From contig OY760175.1 in assembly GCA_963663165.1 (NCBI GenBank), positions 1,696,001 through 1,760,000 of the forward strand: a stretch of 64,000 nucleotides of DNA. The letters run 5' to 3'. A program made the translations under genes and the position numbers. The notes beneath the pieces were generated by a model that was not told the origin of the DNA, did not search any database, and saw nothing but the letters and a program-made list of their open reading frames with translations. The stretch is from an uncultured Desulfospira sp. GTDB taxonomy: Bacteria; Desulfobacterota; Desulfobacteria; Desulfobacterales; Desulfobacteraceae. Shown here piece after piece: positions 53,571 to 64,000 of the stretch. Each line of letters opens with the position of its first letter. The first letter of the stretch is position 1.

Positions 53571-54734
53571 CTAATTTGTCTCCCAGAAAGGCGACATCTG
53601 CCTTAACCGTTCAATAATGGGCACCATGGCCTCAACAATGTCATCCATTTCCTGGCGGGTATTGTAATGGGACAGGGAAAACCGGATGGTCCCGTGAAGG
53701 GATTTCTGGGGGACCTTCATGGCCATGAGCACATGGGAGGGATCAAGAGAGCCCGAGGTGCAGGCCGATCCGGAAGAGGCGCAGATGCCTTTCTGATCCA
53801 GGAGCATGAGAATGGACTCCCCCTCTACGGCGTCAAAGCCGATGGACAGGGTATTGGGCAGCCGGTGGTCCATATCCCCGTTCACGGAACAGGCAGGAAT
53901 GGTGTCAAGCAGCCGGTTCTGGAGACAATCCCTTAACTCCTTAACCCGGGTGTTCATTTCATCTAAATTCTCTTTGGCCAGTTGGGCGGCCTTGCCAAGG
54001 CCGATAATGGAAACCGTGTTTTCCGTTCCGCCCCGCCGGCCCTTTTCCTGGTGGCCGCCAATAAGAAATGGCGTGAACTTGAGGCCGTTTTTGATATACA
54101 GCACACCAATGCCCTTGGGGGCATGAATTTTATGCCCGGACAAGGAGAGCATGTCCACACCGGTTTTCTTCACGTCAATGGGCACCTTGCCCGTGGCCTG
54201 GACCGCGTCGGTATGAAATAAAATCCCTTTTTGAGCCGCTTCTTTAGCAATCTCGTCAATGGGGAAAATCACGCCTGTTTCGTTGTTGGCCCACATGACG
54301 GATACGATGGCGGTATTCTCAGACATGCTTGAATAGAGCAGGTCCAGGTCCAGCCGCCCCCTGCTGTCCACGGGCACCAGGGTAATCTCATACCCCCGGT
54401 TTCTTTTTAGGTGTTTACACAGGTTAAGAATGGCCGGATGCTCAACCGCTGTGGTAATGATATGCTTTTTTTCGGGGAAAGCGGCAAGGGCCGTGTTAAT
54501 GGCCGCATTATCACTCTCCGTGCCGCAGCTGGTAAACACGATCTCATCCGGGTCCGCATTGATCAGGCCGGCCACATGTTCTCTGGCCTGTTTAACCTTT
54601 TGGGCCACCTGGTCCCCGAAGGTATACATGGAAGACGGGTTCCCGTACATCTCGCCGAAATAAGGAAGCATTGTCTCAATGACCTCATCAGCGACTTTGG
54701 TGGTGGCGTTGTTATCCGTGTAAATAATAGTCAT
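53571..54734 (-). CDS. nifS: Cysteine desulfurase NifS
   Basis: DNNATT, TSCGTESDN, NNETG, HTDAVQ, SGHK (PLP Lys), SSGSACTSGS. Confidence 0.95.
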   Translation of the reverse strand: MTIIYTDNNATTKVADEVIETMLPYFGEMYGNPSSMYTFGDQVAQKVKQAREHVAGLINADPDEIVFTSCGTESDNAAINTALAAFPEKKHIITTAVEHPAILNLCKHLKRNRGYEITLVPVDSRGRLDLDLLYSSMSENTAIVSVMWANNETGVIFPIDEIAKEAAQKGILFHTDAVQATGKVPIDVKKTGVDMLSLSGHKIHAPKGIGVLYIKNGLKFTPFLIGGHQEKGRRGGTENTVSIIGLGKAAQLAKENLDEMNTRVKELRDCLQNRLLDTIPACSVNGDMDHRLPNTLSIGFDAVEGESILMLLDQKGICASSGSACTSGSLDPSHVLMAMKVPQKSLHGTIRFSLSHYNTRQEMDDIVEAMVPIIERLRQMSPFWETN

Positions 54735-54750: not shown

Positions 54751-55323
54751 TTATGCCAGGCCTTGAGCAGCCCGGGTGGATTCAATGATCTGTTCGATCC
54801 GGTCAATGCATTTGCCGCAGCCGCCGCCAGCCTTAAGATAGTTGGTGACATCTTCGGTGGTCTTAAGGTCGTTGTTTTTGACGGCATCCTTAATTTCAAG
54901 ATCGGTCACATCAAAACATTCACAGACCAGGTCTCCTGGTTTCTCAAGGATCTGAACGCCCCGGTAATTGGCAATGGCCTTTTTCAAGGCGGCATGGCCC
55001 ATGACCGAGCAGTGCATTTTGGCTTTGGGAAGCCCCCCTAAATAATCGGCAATATCGTCGTTGGTCACCTTGATAGCCTCATCCAGGGTCATGCCCTTGA
55101 TGATTTCCGTCAGGGCCGATGAGGACGCCACGGCACTGGCGCAGCCAAATGTCATGAAAGAGGCATTGATGATTCTTTCATTTTCATTCACCTTTAAATA
55201 TAAGGTCAGGGCATCCCCGCAATTGAGGGACCCGGTCTCTCCCACCGCATTTGCATCTCTCATGACCCCTACGTTCCTGGGGTTCAAAAAATGGTCTTTG
55301 ACCTGATCAGAGTAATTCCACAT
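54751..55323 (-). CDS. nifU: Fe-S scaffold NifU (IscU-like plus BFD-like domains, no C-terminal Nfu domain)
   Basis: HFLNPRNVG, CGD, FGCASA, LPKAKMHCS, VCECF...GGCGKC. Ends at 190 aa. Confidence 0.9.
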   Translation of the reverse strand: MWNYSDQVKDHFLNPRNVGVMRDANAVGETGSLNCGDALTLYLKVNENERIINASFMTFGCASAVASSSALTEIIKGMTLDEAIKVTNDDIADYLGGLPKAKMHCSVMGHAALKKAIANYRGVQILEKPGDLVCECFDVTDLEIKDAVKNNDLKTTEDVTNYLKAGGGCGKCIDRIEQIIESTRAAQGLA

Positions 55324-55945: not shown

Positions 55946-57382
55946 ATGAGCAGCAACCAGACATTAATGCGCCGGGAGCGTGACACCTTAGGAGAACTCG
56001 ATGTTCCGGCCACGGCCCTTTACGGCATCCATACCATGCGGGCCATCCACAATTTCCCCTTTTCAACGGCCCGCCTTCCCGAACCGTTCATAAAGGCCAT
56101 GGGACAGGTAAAACAGGCCTGTGCCCTGACGAACCAGACCCTTGGCTATCTTGATCCAAATCCGGGCGAGGCCGTTATCACCGCCTGCAAAGAGCTTGAA
56201 AAAGGCGATCTGTCAGACCACATTCTGGTGGACCCCTTCCAGGGCGGGGCCGGCACCTCCACCAACATGAACGTTAACGAGGTCATTGCCAACCGGGCCG
56301 AACAACTCCTGGGCGGGAATCTAGGCGAATACCGGATGGTTCACCCCATTCATCACGTCAATATGCACCAGTCCACCAATGATGTGTATCCCACGGCTCT
56401 GAAGGTAGCAGCGCTTAAGCTGCTGGTGACCCTGGAAAACGAGATAGAAAAGCTGCAACAGGCCCTCCAGGAAAAGGAGGGGGAATTTCGCAGCATTGTA
56501 AAGGTGGCCAGAACCGAGCTTGTGGACGCCGTTCCCATGACCCTGGGCATGACCTTTGGGGCCTTTGCCGATGCCGCGGCCCGTGACCGCTGGCGTATTT
56601 TCAAGAGCCGGGAACGGATCAAACGGGTCAATCTTGGGGGAACCGCCATTGGTACGGGGCTGGGCGCGCCCAGGGACTATGTGCTGAAGGTGACTGAAAC
56701 CCTGCGGAATATCACCGCTTTACCGGTATCCCGTGCTGAAAATCTCATCGACGCCACCCAGAATATGGACCCTTTGGTAGAAGTTTCGGGCATGCTCAAG
56801 GCCTATGCGGCCAATCTGCTCAAACTGTCCTCGGATTTAAGGCTGCTGTCCAGCGGGCCTGAAACCGGCATCGGGGAGATCATTCTTGACCCCTTGCAGG
56901 CGGGATCTTCCATTATGGCCGGCAAGATCAATCCGGTCATGCCCGAAGCCGTGACCCAGGTGGCGATCAAGGTGATGGGCAACGACCAGACCATCGCCTT
57001 TGCCGCCGGCATGGGCCAGCTTGAACTCAATCACCTCCTGCCGCTGTTAACCCACACTTTTTTAGAATCACTGATGCTGCTGATCAGCGCCACAAAAGGG
57101 CTTTCCACACACTGTATCCCTAAAATCCAAGCCAACCCAAAACAATGTCTGGCCCATTTAGAACGAAGCCATGCGCTGGCCACGGTCCTGGTCCCGGCAC
57201 TGGGATATGCCCGGGTGGAGGAGATCGTCAACGCCGCAAGGGCATCGGGCAGATCCATAAAAGAGGAGATCATCCATCAGCATCTGGCATCACGGGAAAT
57301 TGTCGATACGCTGCTGTCGCCCAAACGGCTGTGTAAACTCGGGTTTACGCCAAATGAATTTGACGGGGTGAACCGGCCATGA
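55946..57382 (+). CDS. aspA: Aspartate ammonia-lyase
   Basis: RRERDTLGE, YGIHT-RA, QGGAGTSTNMN, HVNMHQSTND, GSSIMAGKINPV fumarase/aspartase signature. Confidence 0.9.
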   Translation: MSSNQTLMRRERDTLGELDVPATALYGIHTMRAIHNFPFSTARLPEPFIKAMGQVKQACALTNQTLGYLDPNPGEAVITACKELEKGDLSDHILVDPFQGGAGTSTNMNVNEVIANRAEQLLGGNLGEYRMVHPIHHVNMHQSTNDVYPTALKVAALKLLVTLENEIEKLQQALQEKEGEFRSIVKVARTELVDAVPMTLGMTFGAFADAAARDRWRIFKSRERIKRVNLGGTAIGTGLGAPRDYVLKVTETLRNITALPVSRAENLIDATQNMDPLVEVSGMLKAYAANLLKLSSDLRLLSSGPETGIGEIILDPLQAGSSIMAGKINPVMPEAVTQVAIKVMGNDQTIAFAAGMGQLELNHLLPLLTHTFLESLMLLISATKGLSTHCIPKIQANPKQCLAHLERSHALATVLVPALGYARVEEIVNAARASGRSIKEEIIHQHLASREIVDTLLSPKRLCKLGFTPNEFDGVNRP

Positions 57383-57424: not shown

Positions 57425-58636
57425 ATGCTTATGTCCAGTAAGGCCCCCCGGGGTGTACGCCTTGTTATTGCACTGGTGGGCCGGCGCAATGCCGGAAAAT
57501 CATCCCTTGTCAACGCCATTGCCGGGCAGGAGATTGCCATCGTTTCCGATCACCCGGGCACGACCACGGACCCGGTGGCCAAGCCCTACGAACTGCTGCC
57601 CTTAGGGCCTGTCACCTTTTATGATACGGCAGGCCTGGATGACGAAGGGGAACTTGGAGACCTGCGGGTCAGGGCCACCCGGAAAATCCTCTGGCGGTCG
57701 GATGTGGCCGTGGTGGTCATTTCAGAGCAAGGCATCACCCATTATGAAAAAAAGATCGTTGATGAAATCCGTGATCTGGACATTCCCTTCCTCATGGTCT
57801 TTAACAAGAGCGATCTGGCCAGGCCTTCAGACCCGGATCTTGCCTTTTGCAGGGAAAACAGCCTGCCTTATCTGATCATCAGTGCAAAAGACAATGTGAA
57901 TATTACGGCAGTAAAAGAGGCAATTATCGACATTGCCCCGCCGGAAATAAAGCGGGAGCCTTTGCTGGCCGGCGACCTCATCAATGAGGGCGACTGGGTG
58001 GTCTGTGTGGTTCCCATTGATCTGGCAGCCCCCAAAGGCAGGCTCATCCTGCCCCAGGTTCAGGTTCTTCGTGAAATCCTGGACTGTGATGCCTTGGGGC
58101 TCATGGTCAAGGAAAAAGAAATTGATGCGGCCCTTTCCGGCCTGCATCGAAAACCGGCCCTGGTGATTGCCGATTCCCAGGTGGTGATGAGCGTGGCCGG
58201 GGACGTGCCCGAAGATATCCCCTTAACCACTTTTTCCATTCTGTTTGCCCGGTACAAGGGGGACATCACAAAGCTTACGGCCGGTGCGGCCGCCATAGAC
58301 GATCTTAAGGACGGGGACCGGGTCCTTATTGCCGAGGCCTGTTCCCACCATCCAGTGGCCGACGACATCGGCCGGGTCAAGATTCCCCGCTGGATCACCC
58401 AGTACACGGGCAGGGATTTGAACTTTGATGTCTATTCCGGCCACGATTTTCCTGAACATCTGGAAAAGTACCGGCTGGCCGTTCATTGCGGGGGATGCAT
58501 GATCAACCGCGTTGAAATGCTGCGCAGAATCAAGGAGTGCCGCCGCCGAGGGGTGGCCATTACCAACTTTGGCCTGGCCATCTCAAAGGTCCAGGGGGTG
58601 CTGGACAGGGTCATAAAGCCCTTTGGAGGGATATAA
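57425..58636 (+). CDS. hydF: [FeFe]-hydrogenase H-cluster maturation GTPase HydF
   Basis: GRRNAGKSS, GTTTDPV, DTAG, NKSD, PIDLAAPKGRLILPQVQ, and EACSHH...HCGGC Fe-S motif. Confidence 0.95.
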   Translation: MLMSSKAPRGVRLVIALVGRRNAGKSSLVNAIAGQEIAIVSDHPGTTTDPVAKPYELLPLGPVTFYDTAGLDDEGELGDLRVRATRKILWRSDVAVVVISEQGITHYEKKIVDEIRDLDIPFLMVFNKSDLARPSDPDLAFCRENSLPYLIISAKDNVNITAVKEAIIDIAPPEIKREPLLAGDLINEGDWVVCVVPIDLAAPKGRLILPQVQVLREILDCDALGLMVKEKEIDAALSGLHRKPALVIADSQVVMSVAGDVPEDIPLTTFSILFARYKGDITKLTAGAAAIDDLKDGDRVLIAEACSHHPVADDIGRVKIPRWITQYTGRDLNFDVYSGHDFPEHLEKYRLAVHCGGCMINRVEMLRRIKECRRRGVAITNFGLAISKVQGVLDRVIKPFGGI

Positions 58637-60309
58637 TGCACCTTCAGGAAAACGGCATTACCTTCGCAGCCCCCCCCTTGAACCGGCTGCCGTCGGTTCA
58701 CAGGAAAATTTTCTGTCCGGGAAACACCTTGATTGTCTGCGTGCAGCTGGCAGACGGGCGGGTGGAAGATGCCTGGAGTACCGGCCGGATGATGCGCAGC
58801 ATGAACCTTTTGCTGCAGGTTATTTCAGATGACCCCGGCCGGCCCTGTTTTGTCCGGCGCGCCCATTGCCTGTGCAACGACGGACATGCCCTGGCTGCGG
58901 TTCGCGCATTAGAGGACCTGGCCGGGATAGCGCCGCCCCGCAGCGCGCTTCTGGTGCGCAGCCTGGTTCAGGCCCTTCGATGTATCCAGGAGCACCTGCT
59001 TCACTTTTATCAATTTCACCTGTCCAACTGGGTCTGTTTAGGGCCGGCCCTGGGGGCTGATCCCGGTAAAACCGCCCGGCTGGCAGATCCATTGAACCGG
59101 GGACCTGATTATTTCAGGCAGGTCCAGGAGCGGTTGCGGCCCCTGGCTGAAAATAAAGGGATCAATGGATTTAATGACCGTTTCTGTGATCATCCGGATT
59201 ACCGTGGAGCCGACGAATTCCATCTGCTGGTTCACAGCCACAGCCTGGAATCCCTTCAAATACAAAGTCTTCTGAACAAGGCCCTGGGGCTGCTTGGCTG
59301 TAAAAACGGCCGGCATCCGGCCTATCAGACAGGCGGGCTGTCCCCGGACATGAACCTTGGACAGGCCGTGCTGCAGCAGCTGCACGGCCTGGTTCGCCAC
59401 TGCCGGGATTTTATTAACACCTCTTTTCTTACCGATCTTGAACAGATGGCCAGGGCCTACCCCCATTGGAAGGACCTGGCCATTGGCAGCACGTTTCTTT
59501 GCCTGGGCGATTTTGCCCGACCCCATGACAGGGGCCTGCTGTTTCCCAACGGCATTACCCGGACGGCAGGCAAAAATCAAATCGTTGATCCGGCCCGGCC
59601 CGATCGGGTCACGGAAGAACACACCCCTAAATGGAAGGACCTGGACACAGAACGGTACCGGCTCAACTTCGGCAGACACGGCCCGGTATTTTTCTGGAAC
59701 AAAGGAAATTTGCCTTGGATTTTTGCTCCCCGCCACGGCAAAGATGCCTGTGAGGCGGGATCCCTTGCCCGGGTGATGGGGGCCTTTACCCAGGGCCGGC
59801 AGGAAGTGTGTAAAGCCGTAAATAACAGCCTGAAGGCCTCCGGCCTTTTGCCGGGGGATATGAACTGTGCACTGGGGAGGCTGTTGTCCCGGGGCATTGA
59901 ATCTTCGGTTCTTTCAAAGGCCGCTTTGGACTGGCTGGATGAACTCAAGACTGAACCGGTCGGCAAACGGGCATTGATGAACCAGAACTTTCGTCTGCCC
60001 CGTACCGGTGTGGGAACCGGAAAGGTGGAAGTGCCAAGGGGATCTTTGATCCATACCATCCAAATGGACAAACACAGAATCATCCGCCATGACTGCCTTA
60101 TCCCGTCCATGTGGAATTTTTCCGTCCGGGATTCAAAGGGCCGGCGCGGCCCCCTGGAACAGGCGCTGCTGGGGACACCGGTGAGAAACCCTGATCATCC
60201 CCTGGAACTTTTACGCATTGTCCACGCCTTTGACCCCTGCAACCCCTGCCATGTGGTGGTCCAGGATGCGGACACCGGAAGGGTCACCCTGTCAGGCCCC
60301 GGGACGTGA
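58636..60309 (+). CDS. Divergent [NiFe]-hydrogenase large-subunit-like protein
   Basis: HALAAVRALED, HLLHFYQFH, APRH, CEAGSLAR, EVPRGSLIH, PSMWNFSVRD-KG-RGPLEQALLGTP, ELLRIVHAFDPCNPC. ATG overlaps the hydF TAA (TAATG). Confidence 0.85.
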   Translation: MHLQENGITFAAPPLNRLPSVHRKIFCPGNTLIVCVQLADGRVEDAWSTGRMMRSMNLLLQVISDDPGRPCFVRRAHCLCNDGHALAAVRALEDLAGIAPPRSALLVRSLVQALRCIQEHLLHFYQFHLSNWVCLGPALGADPGKTARLADPLNRGPDYFRQVQERLRPLAENKGINGFNDRFCDHPDYRGADEFHLLVHSHSLESLQIQSLLNKALGLLGCKNGRHPAYQTGGLSPDMNLGQAVLQQLHGLVRHCRDFINTSFLTDLEQMARAYPHWKDLAIGSTFLCLGDFARPHDRGLLFPNGITRTAGKNQIVDPARPDRVTEEHTPKWKDLDTERYRLNFGRHGPVFFWNKGNLPWIFAPRHGKDACEAGSLARVMGAFTQGRQEVCKAVNNSLKASGLLPGDMNCALGRLLSRGIESSVLSKAALDWLDELKTEPVGKRALMNQNFRLPRTGVGTGKVEVPRGSLIHTIQMDKHRIIRHDCLIPSMWNFSVRDSKGRRGPLEQALLGTPVRNPDHPLELLRIVHAFDPCNPCHVVVQDADTGRVTLSGPGT

Positions 60310-60340
60310 CAAGAAACCGGAAAAAAAGATAAAAGAAGCT

Positions 60341-61351
60341 ATGAACCGGAACACCATATTAGATGCACTTAAAGACCAAACCGGACAAACCGGCCTGTTT
60401 GCGGCAGCCGATCGGGTGCGCAAAGAAAACCTTGGCGACACCGCCCAGCTGCGCGGCGTGGTCCATTTCTCAAATTACTGCCGGTGTAATGACCTTTATT
60501 GCGGCCTGCTTAAAAACAACACCCAATGCCGGCGGTTTCGCATGAGTGAGGATAAGATTGTCGACACGGCCCTGGCCATTGCCCGGGCCGGGTTAAAAAC
60601 CGTGGTGCTTCAGTCGGGTGAGGACCTTTACTACACCCGGCCCATGATCAGTTCTGTGATTGAACGAATCCTGGATAACGCCGATGTGGCCGTTACCTTA
60701 AGCTTGGGAATGCGGTCCAGAGACGACTTTAAGGCCTTTCGGGACGCCGGGGCCCAGCGGTATCTCATGAAGCACGAAACCATGAACCCCGTTCTCTATT
60801 CCAGGATGCGCCCGGGCCAGCAGCTTGCGGACCGGCTTAAAACCATCCATGAGTTGCGGGAACTCGGATACCAGGTGGGGGTGGGCAATATCGTGGGCCT
60901 GCCCGGCCAGACCCTTTCAGATCTGTGCGAGGACATCCTTTTTTTCCAGGATTTCCAGCCGGACATGATTAATATCGGCCCGTTTATTCCCCATGCCCAG
61001 ACCGTGCTTAAGGATGAACCGGCCGGGGACATGGACCTGATGCTGCGGGTGTTTGCCTTAACCCGGATGGTGACCGGCAACACCCATATTGCTGCGGCCA
61101 ATACCGTGGCCACCCTGGACCCGGAACAGGGGCAGTACCGGGCCTTGACTCAGGGCGGCGCCAATGTAATGATGCCCAATTGCAACCCGTTTCAAAAAAG
61201 CCAAAAGGATAAAATTGAATACGAGTTTCAGATAACCACCCATAAACGCTACGTTTCCGTTAACGAGGCCCGAAGCGTCCTTGCCCGGGCCAACCGGACC
61301 GTGGACAAGGGAAAGGGACACTCCCTTAAAATACGAGGAGAACAGGTTTGA
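60341..61351 (+). CDS. HydE-like radical SAM protein with altered cluster motif
   Basis: RGVVHFSNYCRCNDLYCGL, TVVLQSGED, VTLSLG, RYLMKHET, VGLPGQT, IGPFIPH, GANVMMPN. ATG 60341. Confidence 0.85.
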   Translation: MNRNTILDALKDQTGQTGLFAAADRVRKENLGDTAQLRGVVHFSNYCRCNDLYCGLLKNNTQCRRFRMSEDKIVDTALAIARAGLKTVVLQSGEDLYYTRPMISSVIERILDNADVAVTLSLGMRSRDDFKAFRDAGAQRYLMKHETMNPVLYSRMRPGQQLADRLKTIHELRELGYQVGVGNIVGLPGQTLSDLCEDILFFQDFQPDMINIGPFIPHAQTVLKDEPAGDMDLMLRVFALTRMVTGNTHIAAANTVATLDPEQGQYRALTQGGANVMMPNCNPFQKSQKDKIEYEFQITTHKRYVSVNEARSVLARANRTVDKGKGHSLKIRGEQV

Positions 61352-62103
61352 TTAAGGTAGCCATATACGGTAAGGGGGGCATTGGCAAATCCACCGTGGC
61401 CTCATGCATATCCGCCGCTTTAGGGATACAGGGAACCCATGTCATGCAGATCGGCTGCGACCCCAAAACCGATTCCACCATCAATCTTCTGGGGGGAACC
61501 CCGCCGCCGCCCATCCTGCAGTATCTTCAGGAAAACGGGCGGCCCGACACCCTGGACGCCATTGCCAGACGGGGCTTCGGCAATACAATCTGCATGGAGG
61601 TAGGCGGCCCGACCCCGGGTGTGGGCTGTTTTGGCCGGGGCATGCTCACCGCTTTTGAGCTTTTGGACGACATGGGCGCCTATGATGTTTACCAGCCGGA
61701 CGTGGTGCTTTACGACATTCTGGCCGATGTGGTGTGCGGCGGCATTGCCGTGCCCATGCGCGAAGGATTTGCCGATAAGGTCTGTATTGTCACCTCAGGT
61801 GAAAAAATGGCCCTGCTGGCCGCCCAGAACATTATCCTGGCCCTGCGCAATTTTGCAGACCGCAACTATGCTGAACTCGGCGGGCTGATCCTCAACTGCC
61901 GGGATATGGAAAACGAAGCGGAACGGGTAAAGGCCTTTGCCCAGAAAATGGAAACCGCCATTTTAGGGGTGATTCCCCGGGACAGGGCCATCCACACATT
62001 TGAAGAAGAAGGCAAGACCATTGTTGAGGCAGACCGTACCCTGCCCACCTCGGCCCGGTTTTTTGAACTGGCCAAAACCATTGCCGGGTTTGGGGACCTT
62101 TAA
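61348..62103 (+). CDS. NifH-like (nitrogenase iron protein family) ATPase/reductase
   Basis: YGKGGIGKST, GCDPKTDST, GGPTPGVGCFGRG, DVVCGG. TTG start overlaps the upstream TGA. Confidence 0.9.
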   Translation: MIKVAIYGKGGIGKSTVASCISAALGIQGTHVMQIGCDPKTDSTINLLGGTPPPPILQYLQENGRPDTLDAIARRGFGNTICMEVGGPTPGVGCFGRGMLTAFELLDDMGAYDVYQPDVVLYDILADVVCGGIAVPMREGFADKVCIVTSGEKMALLAAQNIILALRNFADRNYAELGGLILNCRDMENEAERVKAFAQKMETAILGVIPRDRAIHTFEEEGKTIVEADRTLPTSARFFELAKTIAGFGDL

Positions 62104-62148
62104 AACATTGCTCAAGGATTGAACAAACACGACCGTAAGGATATTTGT

Positions 62149-63447
62149 ATGGACCTGGATCATGCCCGCATCAGGGTTGAAAACCTGCGTGAGAAATCGG
62201 ATTTTCCCTTTGCCCCCCTGGAAGGGGTGGGCCCTAACCTGGCCGGCTGGGGCGTCATCGAGACCTGCCTGCTGCTGCCGGAGTCGGTGGCGGTCATGGT
62301 CGGGCCTTCGGCCTGCCTGCGCCATTCAGCCTTTATGGCCCATGCCAGGGGATTTACAGAACGGTTTTATATGCTGTGCGTGCCTGAACTTGACATGGCC
62401 ATGGGCAATCACCTGTCCGTGGTGGAAAAGGGCATCAGGGACATTGCAAAAACGCGGCAGGAAAAGGTAATTTTCCTGATTGTGGGGTGCCCGGATTATA
62501 TTCTGGGTACGGATCTTACCGGGGTCATCCGGCGCCTGGAAGCCGCCACCGGGAAAAAGATCATCCCCGGGGCCATGGCACCCATTACCATCGGGCTTAA
62601 ATCATCCCCCTTTGCCTCGGCCTATACCTCGTTTTTCGAGTTCCTTAAGGACACACCCCGGGGTCAAGATGACCGGGTCCTCAACCTTTTGGGCACATTT
62701 ATGCCCCTGTCGGATTCCGGGGAGCTTTATCAGGTTCTGGCCGCCGCCGGCATGGACACGGTACTTCAAATCCCCCTGTGCCGTGATTTAACACAATTCT
62801 CGCGCATGGCCCATGGCCGGGCCTCAGTGGTCCTGCACCCGCTGGCCAACGGCCTTTCCGGCAAAATGGAACAAGAGATGGGCATTCCGGCCTGTTTTGC
62901 GCCAACGTCCTATGGATTTTCCATTATCCGGGAACAGTATGAGAAAATCAGTGAGGCTGTGGGACAGCCCCTTGATACCGGGCCTTATGAACAGGCGGCC
63001 CGGCAGGCGGCGGCCCCCTTGCTGGAGATGCTTTACGGCAAATCGGCCGCCGTGGGATGCAGTATCAACGGCAGCCCCTTTGAGCTTTCCCTGTTTCTGG
63101 TCCAAAGCGGTGTCAATGTGGAAGCCGTTTTTGCCCGGGGCGCCATCAAGCCCTATGAATGGGACCTGATCCAGCAATTGCGTAAGGTAAAACCGGACAT
63201 CCATGTGTACAACGCATCCCATCCGGCCCTGTGCGGACACACCCAACCTTTTGACACCGTGGAACTGGCCTATGGCGTTGATGCGGGTATTTTTTGTGCC
63301 CAGGCCGCCAATGTGCCCCTGTCCCGCTACCAGGAACAAACATACGGGTTTGAAGCCGCTGTCTGGATGCTTGAACAAAGCTGCCGGGCCCTGACCCATC
63401 CGGTGGACAACTATGAGTGGATATACAAACACAACTTTCTCATATGA
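62149..63447 (+). CDS. Nitrogenase component-1 type oxidoreductase subunit (NifD/NifE-like fold)
   Basis: MVGPSACLRH, ELDMAMG, GCPDYILGTD, LNLLG. Follows the NifH-like gene. ATG 62149 after AAGGA. Confidence 0.8.
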   Translation: MDLDHARIRVENLREKSDFPFAPLEGVGPNLAGWGVIETCLLLPESVAVMVGPSACLRHSAFMAHARGFTERFYMLCVPELDMAMGNHLSVVEKGIRDIAKTRQEKVIFLIVGCPDYILGTDLTGVIRRLEAATGKKIIPGAMAPITIGLKSSPFASAYTSFFEFLKDTPRGQDDRVLNLLGTFMPLSDSGELYQVLAAAGMDTVLQIPLCRDLTQFSRMAHGRASVVLHPLANGLSGKMEQEMGIPACFAPTSYGFSIIREQYEKISEAVGQPLDTGPYEQAARQAAAPLLEMLYGKSAAVGCSINGSPFELSLFLVQSGVNVEAVFARGAIKPYEWDLIQQLRKVKPDIHVYNASHPALCGHTQPFDTVELAYGVDAGIFCAQAANVPLSRYQEQTYGFEAAVWMLEQSCRALTHPVDNYEWIYKHNFLI

Positions 63448-63457
63448 GGGATCACCC

Positions 63458-64000
63458 ATGAAAGCATATCATCATCTCCTTCCCCTGGCCACGGGCTATT
63501 TCGGGGTCAGTTCCGCACTTTACAACTTTGGCGGCCTGGTGGTCATCTATGGACCTGCAGGCGGGGCCTGGCACATCAATATCGAGGATGAACCGCGCTG
63601 GTACCGGGGGCCGGCCACAGTGGTGGGGGCGGGCCTGCTGGAAATGGACGTGATCCTGGGCAATGATAACAAATTTATCACCCATATCGTTGAGACCGCC
63701 AAGGGGTTGAATTCCCCTTTTGTGGCCCTGTCAGGCACCCCCATCTCAGAGATTATCGGTACCGATCTTAAGGGATTTGTGCGGAGTGTTGAAAGCCGTA
63801 CCGGCATCCCGGTGTTCATGGTGCCCACGGCCGGTTCCGAACCCTATCCCGAGGGGGCGTCCAAGGCGCTTCTGGCCCTTTCCGACAAAATCATGGATCC
63901 GGATGCCCCTAAGCAGCCCAAAGGGGTTAACATCCTCGGGGCCATTCATCTTTCCACGGGCCGGCAGGCCCATATCGAACCGTTGCTTAACGCCATCCGG
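63458..64000 (+). CDS. Second nitrogenase component-1 type subunit (partial, runs off the window; absent from the ORF track)
   Basis: Open frame from ATG 63458: MKAYHHLLPLATGYFGVSSALYNFGGLVVIYGPAGG...DEPRWY...LLEMDVILG...GTPISEIIGTDLKG...GVNILG. Confidence 0.8.
   Translation, partial: MKAYHHLLPLATGYFGVSSALYNFGGLVVIYGPAGGAWHINIEDEPRWYRGPATVVGAGLLEMDVILGNDNKFITHIVETAKGLNSPFVALSGTPISEIIGTDLKGFVRSVESRTGIPVFMVPTAGSEPYPEGASKALLALSDKIMDPDAPKQPKGVNILGAIHLSTGRQAHIEPLLNAIR

Follow-up and report, generated by a model that had tools for sequence, protein, structure and literature searches.

A conserved HydE variant with aspartate at the middle cluster cysteine lies in a hybrid Hyd, Hyp and nitrogenase-like gene module

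Introduction

Can a HydE-family protein that bears aspartate in place of one of the three cysteines of its cluster motif still take part in [FeFe] hydrogenase maturation, and with which partners? The question is raised by hydE(Asp), a gene in a 64,000-nt stretch of contig OY760175.1 from an uncultured Desulfospira sp.; this whole stretch is called the window below. We conclude that its product is almost certainly a conserved, neofunctionalised HydE with Asp at a ligand position. It is encoded in a hybrid Hyd/Hyp/nitrogenase-like module that is itself conserved and for which we found no published description. In the literature searched, whose coverage excluded subscription journals, no publication linked HydE or HydF with nitrogenase-like or Hyp proteins in one pathway. 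HydE and HydF have zero occurrences in a 2026 Chem Rev review of nitrogen-fixation-like (NFL) systems (PMC13474568).

The locus touches two problems already recognised by others. A 2024 Cell paper on archaeal hydrogenases argues that an alternative maturation pathway must exist (PMC11216029). The same 2026 review names the finding of functions for uncharacterised nitrogenase-like groups as the main challenge of the field (PMC13474568).

Results

HydE(Asp) carries Asp at a cluster-ligand position

The window protein narrowly passed the HydE equivalog model TIGR03956 (264.6 bits, cut-off 254.6) and matched PF04055 Radical_SAM at 61.6 bits; the PylB, BioB and HmdB models scored far below the HydE model. 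Residues 10-288 aligned with the Thermotoga maritima HydE structures (3CIW, 5FEW, 7O1O; E = 2e-74), with the canonical CRKNCLYC opposite CRCNDLYC. The radical S-adenosylmethionine (SAM) motif CX3CX2C is absent from the protein, which reads C47-R-C49-N-D51-L-Y-C54, that is C47-x3-D51-x2-C54. An initial annotation of the window had reported Asp at the middle Cys, and the codons at 60479-60502 bear this out. It had also described an altered pocket, and the alignment agrees in every detail: residues 251-255 read AAANT where canonical HydE has PATTA, the YEFQ segment places Phe296 at a canonical Tyr position, and GPFIPH and GANVMMPN (GANVxMPN) are retained. Relatives of the protein are partly labelled HydE by NCBI, and database pipelines file them as ordinary HydE or biotin synthase.

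Conservation was assessed in the best 120 matches from a collection of 5.8 billion proteins. Four matches shorter than 300 residues were dropped and the remaining 116 were aligned with the query; all clade counts refer to these 117 best full-length matches listed. The motif column held Asp in 80 sequences and Cys in 37, and one of the 37 (P0082) bears all other markers of the Asp group. Together with P0082 the Asp sequences form a HydE(Asp) clade of 81 members, 57-99% identical and monophyletic with support 1.0. This support was unchanged when 27 discriminating marker columns were taken out. Outside the clade, 36 of 36 sequences have Cys at the motif column. Close orthologues might, as the initial annotation allowed, have had the canonical CxxxCxxC; alignment with the HydE relatives instead gave Asp in 80 of the 81 clade members.

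Asp and Cys are the sole residues at position 51 in the clade, as expected of a metal ligand. The Asp codon, read in 31 genomic copies, is GAC in 22 and GAT in nine; with both in use, Asp has been kept through synonymous change. Judged from these sequences, the Asp position is under selection. The single member with Cys, P0082, is a database protein with 8 member sequences on a 1.4-kb contig. It reads CISDCLYC, the only canonical CxxxCxxC in the clade, and it nests within a 12-member subclade and still has the Cys281 described below. P0082 is thus likely an Asp-to-Cys reversal.

The pocket is remodelled relative to canonical HydE at positions that are invariant in the clade. These changes comprise His42 for Glu, Phe66 and Phe296 for Tyr, Arg157 for His, Asn211 for Gly, AAANT 251-255 for PATTA and an invariant Cys281, at whose column canonical HydE has Phe, Tyr or Val. 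AAANT, His42, Arg157 and Phe296 each occur in at least 99% of the clade, and the canonical residue in at least 95% of the sequences outside it. The canonical pocket residues PATTA, Glu58, His172 and the C-terminal Tyr are all absent from the window protein. T. maritima residue numbers were mapped from the structure alignment, and the roles of pocket residues other than Met224 and Met291 are putative assignments from that alignment.

Other regions are common to the clade and canonical HydE, namely QSGED, TLSLG, RYL-x-x-HET and the G-x-I-x-G-x-x-E region. Both groups also conserve G180-x-G182...G186LPGQ and the residues M209 and M278, which correspond to T. maritima Met224 and Met291. In T. maritima HydE these two Met residues bind and pass on Fe(CO)2(CN) species, according to a review by Nicolet (PMC10114646). 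Asp51, Cys281 and His42 are the candidate ligands that stay constant across the clade. Since members of the clade have either Asp or Cys at position 51, Asp51 would most likely ligate a [4Fe-4S] cluster along with Cys47 and Cys54. Asp ligation of a [4Fe-4S] cluster is known elsewhere, in the NB-cluster of dark-operative protochlorophyllide oxidoreductase (DPOR), as described in the 2026 review (PMC13474568).

The gene recurs with a nitrogenase-like trio and hyp genes

A scan of one genome per species, with the window proteins placed by tblastn, yielded 32 loci. They come from Desulfobacter, Desulfospira, many Desulfovibrionaceae, Desulfofervidaceae, Thermodesulfatator and Thermodesulfobacterium, with one contig binned as Spirochaetia. 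The order hydE(Asp)-nifH-nifD-nifK is found in 25 of the 32; five more loci end inside the trio and two short ones stop at hydE. A gene for a [NiFe] hydrogenase large-subunit-like protein stands upstream in all loci of Desulfobacterales and Desulfovibrionales and is missing from six loci of Thermodesulfobacteria type. Beyond the trio, the usual companions of hydE(Asp) are hydF-aspA, the large-subunit-like gene and/or hypC/D/E, at times with hypF.

Clustering of open reading frames (ORFs) from the window region and the 32 loci showed hyp genes downstream of nifK, with 14 cases of hypC, 13 of hypD and 12 of hypE, each over its NCBIfam cut-off. In Desulfovibrionaceae, hypC-hypD-hypE come after the module. 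In three loci (L037, L040, L042) the genes form an operon on one strand, hydA-hydB(Tat)-TM1266-hypE-(hypC)-aspA-hydF-hydE(Asp)-nifH-nifD-nifK-hypF-hypD, Tat denoting twin-arginine translocation. The small ORFs at the hypC position were scanned in L042 and in the L040 region (as L049), and both include hypC. A further locus (L039) has two hydA, hydB and hypF. The Hyp proteins of the module all exceed their cut-offs (HypC TIGR00074, HypD TIGR00075, HypE TIGR02124, HypF TIGR00143). G018 and G022 have a second hypD elsewhere, the operon copy being extra, and G020 has the operon hypD only.

The contig binned as Spirochaetia (L027, 10.7 kb) carries a hydE(Asp) 75% identical to the window copy, which stands alone among unrelated genes for an S1 protein, a thioesterase and an ABC transporter. 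HydG and canonical HydE are also present in that bin. The contig may be mis-binned.

HydG is rarely found with the module

The window genome (G000) is a single contig of 6.74 Mb, 96.7% complete. It has one HydE match, which is hydE(Asp), and one HydF, the single match over the cut-off of that model. Its two [FeFe] hydrogenases have intact H-cluster motifs, and one is followed by a Tat small subunit. Thus, of the proteins with which HydE is expected to co-occur, HydF and HydA are present and HydG was not found in the genome, where the best match to the HydG model was hydE(Asp) itself at 36.8 bits. The initial annotation had suggested a substrate other than the HydG-derived synthon; since no HydG was found in the host's single contig, that synthon is excluded as substrate in this genome.

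Of 25 other carrier genomes, 23 have HydA, 22 have HydF as a single copy, two have HydG over the cut-off and 19 have a single HydE-family match. We then considered two wider samples. In 301 genomes of the phylum, the nifD-like gene occurs in five, all of them with HydA and without HydG; HydG was found in 58, HydA in 42 and both in 31. In 151 genomes of Desulfovibrionaceae, HydA accompanies the nifD-like gene in 17 of 17 cases, compared with 65 of the 134 genomes without that gene. HydG is present in 3 of the 17 nifD-like carriers and in 43 of the 65 other HydA-positive genomes.

Four genomes of the phylum sample (G137, G037, G059, G150) have a strong [FeFe] catalytic-domain match with no HydG or HydE over the cut-off, and a search of these four for HydF found none. 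The same match without HydG or HydE over the cut-off was seen in 15 of the 22 HydA-positive Desulfovibrionaceae genomes that lack both HydG and the nifD-like gene. Such genomes with HydA and neither HydG nor HydE may be incomplete assemblies, or may have yet another way of maturation.

Natural intermediates suggest a sequence of gain and loss

Two genomes of a single genus differ in their maturation genes: G055 has hydA-hydA-hydB-aspA-hydG-x-hydF-hydE with a canonical HydE, and G020 has the module instead. The adjoining HydA proteins of the two are 70% identical over their full length, HydF 52% and AspA 52%, and HydE is 46% identical to HydE(Asp). G008 and G015 have hydA and aspA-hydE-hydF, the HydE being canonical (EFS..CxxxCxxC), with no hydG there and the module elsewhere; no HydG over the cut-off was found genome-wide in either. 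By coordinates G396 is the same, with a second HydE match near hydA and no HydG found. In G023, which also carries the module, hydA and aspA-hydE-hydF are separated by a hydG remnant of 127 residues (L052:2730-3110, contig C84). The remnant corresponds to HydG residues 32-158 of 501 and is inside the contig, not at its edge. Taken together, these three sets of genomes suggest that the module arrived, HydG was lost, canonical HydE was usually lost too and HydF was kept.

Neighbouring proteins of the window cluster

The features of the window cluster are collected in Table 1. The hydF and large-subunit-like genes overlap by 1 nt (TAATG), the hydE(Asp) stop overlaps the TTG start of nifH-like (TTGA), and a sulfatase gene on the opposite strand closes the cluster beyond nifK-like. 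For nifD-like, the true start is likely the ATG at 62149, giving 432 residues as in its homologues. Seven sequencing runs containing 57425-63447 were identified, none of them recorded as RNA.

Table 1. Positions of hydE(Asp), its cluster motif and the neighbouring genes in the window.
Feature	Position	Strand	Remarks
nifS	53571-54734	-	TIGR03402 610 bits
nifU	54751-55323	-	TIGR02000 289 bits
aspA, aspartate ammonia-lyase	55946..57382	+	NF008909 604.8 bits
hydF, H-cluster scaffold GTPase, sole genome copy	57425..58636	+	TIGR03918 548.3 bits, cut-off 325.6
[NiFe] hydrogenase large-subunit-like, 557 aa	58636..60309	+	PF00374 320 bits
hydE(Asp), HydE-family radical-SAM-fold protein, 336 aa	60341..61351	+	ATG start; TIGR03956, PF04055
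Variant cluster motif C-R-C-N-D-L-Y-C, Asp replacing middle Cys	60479..60502	+	codons TGC CGG TGT AAT GAC CTT TAT TGC
nifH-like ATPase/reductase, 251 aa, TTG start	61348..62103	+	PF00142 251.6 bits
nifD-like subunit	62119..63447	+	PF00148 94.5 bits
nifK-like subunit, 414 aa, past window end to window-equivalent 64657 (L006:2414-3658)	63413..64000	+	PF00148 98.1 bits

The hydF product is a genuine family member, with TIGR03918 joined by PF18133 and PF18128 (dimerisation and tetramerisation domains) and the CxH...HCxxC motif. All 14 cluster copies have C306, H308, H354, C355 and C358. Adjacency of aspA and hydF is specific to H-cluster maturation, and AspA encoded beside hydF supplies the bridgehead nitrogen, according to PMC11736057. 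Upstream of aspA, across a 620-bp gap, lie the divergent nifU and nifS genes, which among the 32 loci adjoin the module only in the closest relative (L026). They are a possible source of Fe-S for the module, and their membership in it is uncertain.

The large-subunit-like protein belongs to a family of 22 members, and in about 22 loci its gene immediately precedes hydE(Asp). The window protein scored under every NCBIfam cut-off and aligned with the large subunit of Desulfovibrio gigas at E = 2e-76. It reads RAHCLCNDGH for the canonical RACGVCTYVH and DPCNPCHV for DPCIACGV. The first metal Cys is His in the window protein and variable in relatives, and the residue after it is Cys in 20 of 22 family members; the other three metal Cys are kept (C80 in 22/22, C535 in 21/22, C538 in 20/22). 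The family lacks the C-terminal His (+3) of the protease cleavage site, after which about 20 residues form a conserved tail. No small-subunit gene was found in the cluster. The protein thus departs from a [NiFe] large subunit proper in all three defining features, the four metal Cys, the His cleavage site and the small subunit. Predictions of a complex between HydE(Asp) and this protein gave ipSAE 0.00 in two runs, made without controls.

Two side observations concern such large subunits. The segment C-L-C-N-D of the large-subunit-like protein (58866-58880) resembles C-R-C-N-D of HydE(Asp) (60479-60493), both lying at altered metal motifs; the likeness is probably coincidence. Outside the window, the host genome has a [NiFeSe]-type large subunit with one in-frame TGA, presumably selenocysteine (G000:C1:4597005-4598309), and the same is found in G018, G019 and G022.

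The nifH-like protein falls under the NifH, CfbC and BchL cut-offs. It has both the P-loop, GKGGIGKS, and the two cluster Cys of NifH-like proteins, and all 30 sequences share C37, C82, C94 and C130. C94 and C130 are the presumed counterparts of Azotobacter vinelandii Cys97 and Cys132, which hold the dimer-bridging [4Fe-4S] cluster. All 27 nifD-like sequences share C66, H69, C124, H240, H368 and C393; nifK-like has no invariant Cys in its 27 sequences, and H54, H179 and H385 are invariant. The nearest solved relative of nifD-like, aligned with partial coverage, is a 519-aa chain named 'Nitrogenase' (9fmg/9d9u; E = 3.6e-11), presumably MarD of methylthio-alkane reductase. When nifD-like is aligned with 9p1x ('Nitrogenase protein alpha chain'), its invariant His240 lies beside the Cys in the C-H-R-S segment of that chain, presumably the iron-molybdenum cofactor (FeMo-co) ligand Cys275. 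The features of NifDK proper, three P-cluster Cys in each of D and K and a FeMo-co Cys/His pair as defined in PMC13474568, were not found in the pair. The nifD-like family comprises about 80 database clusters, whose taxa match those of the HydE(Asp) clade; record names add Lebetimonas and Thermodesulfobium. A word-indexed search with the nifD-like protein gave no relatives from Clostridia.

Discussion

We propose that the module builds the [2Fe] subcluster of the H-cluster by a route independent of HydG. The proposal draws on gene neighbourhood and phyletic pattern, and we consider it evenly poised between holding and failing. For [NiFe] enzymes, Hyp proteins use carbamoyl phosphate to assemble Fe-CN/CO units, and in the proposed route they would supply the Fe-CN/CO fragment. 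Where present, the large-subunit-like protein may carry this fragment. The nitrogenase-like enzyme would give ATP-driven electrons of low potential, used for example for an extra CO or for reduction of Fe(II) to Fe(I). HydE(Asp), its cluster held by Cys47, Asp51 and Cys54, would act on this fragment in a pocket that can no longer accommodate the cysteinate found in the product of HydG. The dithiomethylamine bridge would then be installed by HydF and AspA, with delivery of the cluster to HydA. The full combination is more tentative, and we judge it somewhat more apt to fail than to hold: HydG-less [2Fe] assembly, in some sulfate reducers and thermophiles, in which CN would come from carbamoyl phosphate via HypF/HypE/HypC/HypD, the nitrogenase-like reductase would provide a reducing or CO-forming step, and an Asp-ligated radical SAM HydE(Asp) would act before HydF/AspA.

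Several observations weigh against this proposal. HydG and the module occur together in four genomes (G024, G413, G457, G464), the last three of which also have canonical HydE. G003 and G021, genomes that may be incomplete, have the module with no HydA or HydF match, and locus L027 has hydE(Asp) alone without the trio. The module is missing from 6 of the 11 phylum genomes that have HydA without HydG; in five of these module-less genomes tested, HydE was over the cut-off in none and HydF in one. Among the Desulfovibrionaceae, 22 of 82 HydA-positive genomes lack both HydG and the nifD-like gene, and seven of the 22 have HydE. The Fisher values for that family sample (6e-4 and 3e-5) exaggerate the association, as relatives are not independent. 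G020 also has [NiFe] hydrogenases, and the hyp genes may simply serve such enzymes of the carriers. The Hyp product has two CN and one CO per iron and the H-cluster one CN per iron, so Hyp chemistry does not map one to one. Iron binding by Asp51 is itself a prediction, and the functional steps all derive from gene neighbourhood and phyletic pattern.

The strongest alternative is that the module builds another Fe-CO/CN cofactor with no role for HydA, the recipient being the large-subunit-like protein or the NifDK-like pair, and HydF and HydE(Asp) being recruited for paralogue functions. We think this unlikely, if the most serious of the competing explanations. In its favour, the large-subunit-like gene stands directly before hydE(Asp) in about 22 loci, and its product keeps three of the four metal Cys together with the conserved C-terminal tail. 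The four genomes with the module and an intact HydG fit it too, three of those checked having canonical HydE, as does G003 with no HydA or HydF match. However, the operons of Thermodesulfobacteria type have no large-subunit-like gene, start with hydAB and include the TM1266 hyd regulator. Carriers have a single HydF, often beside hydA, the HydG remnant and HydG loss fall exactly in module carriers, and HydA accompanies the nifD-like gene in all 17 carriers of the family sample.

A second alternative concerns the mechanism of the protein itself and fits either reading of the pathway. HydE(Asp) may no longer be a radical SAM enzyme, its site-differentiated [4Fe-4S] cluster being either absent or degraded. 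It would then be a scaffold or carrier of Fe-CO/CN via Met209, Met278, Cys281 and His42, with the nitrogenase-like reductase taking over the reductive chemistry that canonical HydE performs with its 5'-deoxyadenosyl radical. The defining three-Cys motif is indeed absent, Cys281 and His42 are new and invariant, and an ATP-dependent reductase always adjoins hydE(Asp). The literature searched, again with subscription journals outside its coverage, also gave no radical SAM enzyme with an Asp cluster ligand. We nevertheless regard loss of radical SAM function as improbable. The SAM-motif residues (QSGED, G-x-I-x-G-x-x-E and others) are invariant despite divergence to 57% identity, which is hard to explain without SAM binding and so counts against it. 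Position 51 moreover admits only Asp or Cys, as for a metal ligand, and the NFL review gives a precedent for Asp ligation in the DPOR NB-cluster (PMC13474568).

In a third alternative the third cluster ligand would be a Cys, either an extra one in the motif or Cys281, and Asp51 would have another role such as tuning or substrate contact. An extra Cys is common in the clade: it stands at +2 in 55 of the 81 members and at +1 in 24, five having both, so that 74 members have one or the other, compared with 10 of 36 (+1) and 1 of 36 (+2) canonical HydEs. Cys281 is likewise invariant in the clade and missing from canonical HydE. Against this, seven members have neither extra Cys and six of them are Asp members (CVRND twice, CLRND, CKRND, CRHDD and CISND). 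The extra Cys also moves between two positions, unlike a fixed ligand, and P0082 retains Cys281 with Cys51 restored. A Cys as third ligand is doubtful in our view. The initial annotation had left the choice between Asp and the shifted Cys; the latter, which is not fixed across the clade, cannot be the general third ligand, and the constant candidates are Asp51, Cys281 and His42.

That Asp is a sequencing error or the gene a decaying pseudogene has nothing for it beyond the departure from the canonical motif and can be dismissed: the change from Cys to Asp takes two nucleotide changes, Asp recurs in 80 database clusters and 31 genomic loci of several orders with both codons in use, and the reading frame is uninterrupted, its overlaps with adjacent genes giving an arrangement of translational coupling.

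If H-cluster assembly by the module holds true, it would be the first described alternative H-cluster pathway and the first function for this nitrogenase-like group. With an Asp-ligated HydE(Asp), a carboxylate would for the first time be described as a ligand of a radical SAM cluster, which would widen the definition of the superfamily. The locus offers a concrete candidate, in a compact gene set, both for HydEFG-less maturation and for a nitrogenase-like function. Natural intermediates are at hand in which HydG is lost, is left as a remnant or coexists with the module. Several record names resemble cultured strains (Thermodesulfobium narugense DSM 14796, Pseudodesulfovibrio senegalensis, P. 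nedwellii, Desulfolutivibrio sulfoxidireducens and Desulfobaculum xiamenense), which suggests that the module is directly testable.

Comparison with known systems

With HydE (TIGR03956; T. maritima), HydE(Asp) shares alignment over its full length at E = 2e-74, both Fe-binding Met, the motifs QSGED, TLSLG, RYL-x-x-HET, G-x-I-x-G-x-x-E, GPFIPH and GANV-x-MPN, and the genomic link to hydF, aspA and hydA. It differs in having Asp for the middle Cys, His for Glu58, Arg for His172, AAANT for PATTA, an invariant Cys at the position of T. maritima Trp294 and Phe for Tyr at two sites. It has no auxiliary-cluster cysteines, and its partners are nitrogenase-like and Hyp proteins rather than HydG. Other radical SAM proteins are known with non-canonical cluster motifs, such as HmdB/HcgA with CX5CX2C and ThiC with CX2CX4C. 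All of these depart from CX3CX2C within the radical-SAM fold, but HmdB/HcgA and ThiC alter the spacing and keep three Cys, whereas HydE(Asp) keeps the spacing and exchanges one ligand for a carboxylate.

Compared with the canonical HydEFG operon, as in G055, the module has hydA, hydB, TM1266, aspA and hydF in common, in similar order and with an orthologous HydA. It differs in that hypE, hypC, the nifHDK-like genes, hypF and hypD replace hydG, and in that hydE is the Asp variant. With the HypCDEF system of Fe(CN)2(CO) assembly it shares genuine HypC, HypD, HypE and HypF encoded inside or beside the module. In contrast to that system, which serves [NiFe] enzymes, the hyp genes of the module are embedded in an [FeFe] hydrogenase operon, and the neighbouring 'large subunit' of Desulfobacterales and Desulfovibrionales has lost one Ni-binding Cys, the His cleavage site and the small subunit.

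Like DPOR (BchLNB) and CfbCD, the trio combines a NifH-like ATPase that has both cluster Cys with a NifD/K-like pair. Its K-like subunit, like that of DPOR, lacks conserved Cys, so any interface cluster would depend mainly on the D-like subunit for ligands (DPOR cluster ligation as given in PMC13474568). Unlike the known NFL systems, the trio lies under every NCBIfam cut-off and forms a tight family of about 80 clusters. The group VI nitrogenase paralogues of Elusimicrobia (bioRxiv 10.1101/765248) were considered and set apart by their description in the preprint: they occur in other taxa (Elusimicrobia, Gracilibacteria, Myxococcales) and with other partners, a B12-binding and a HemN-like radical SAM protein.

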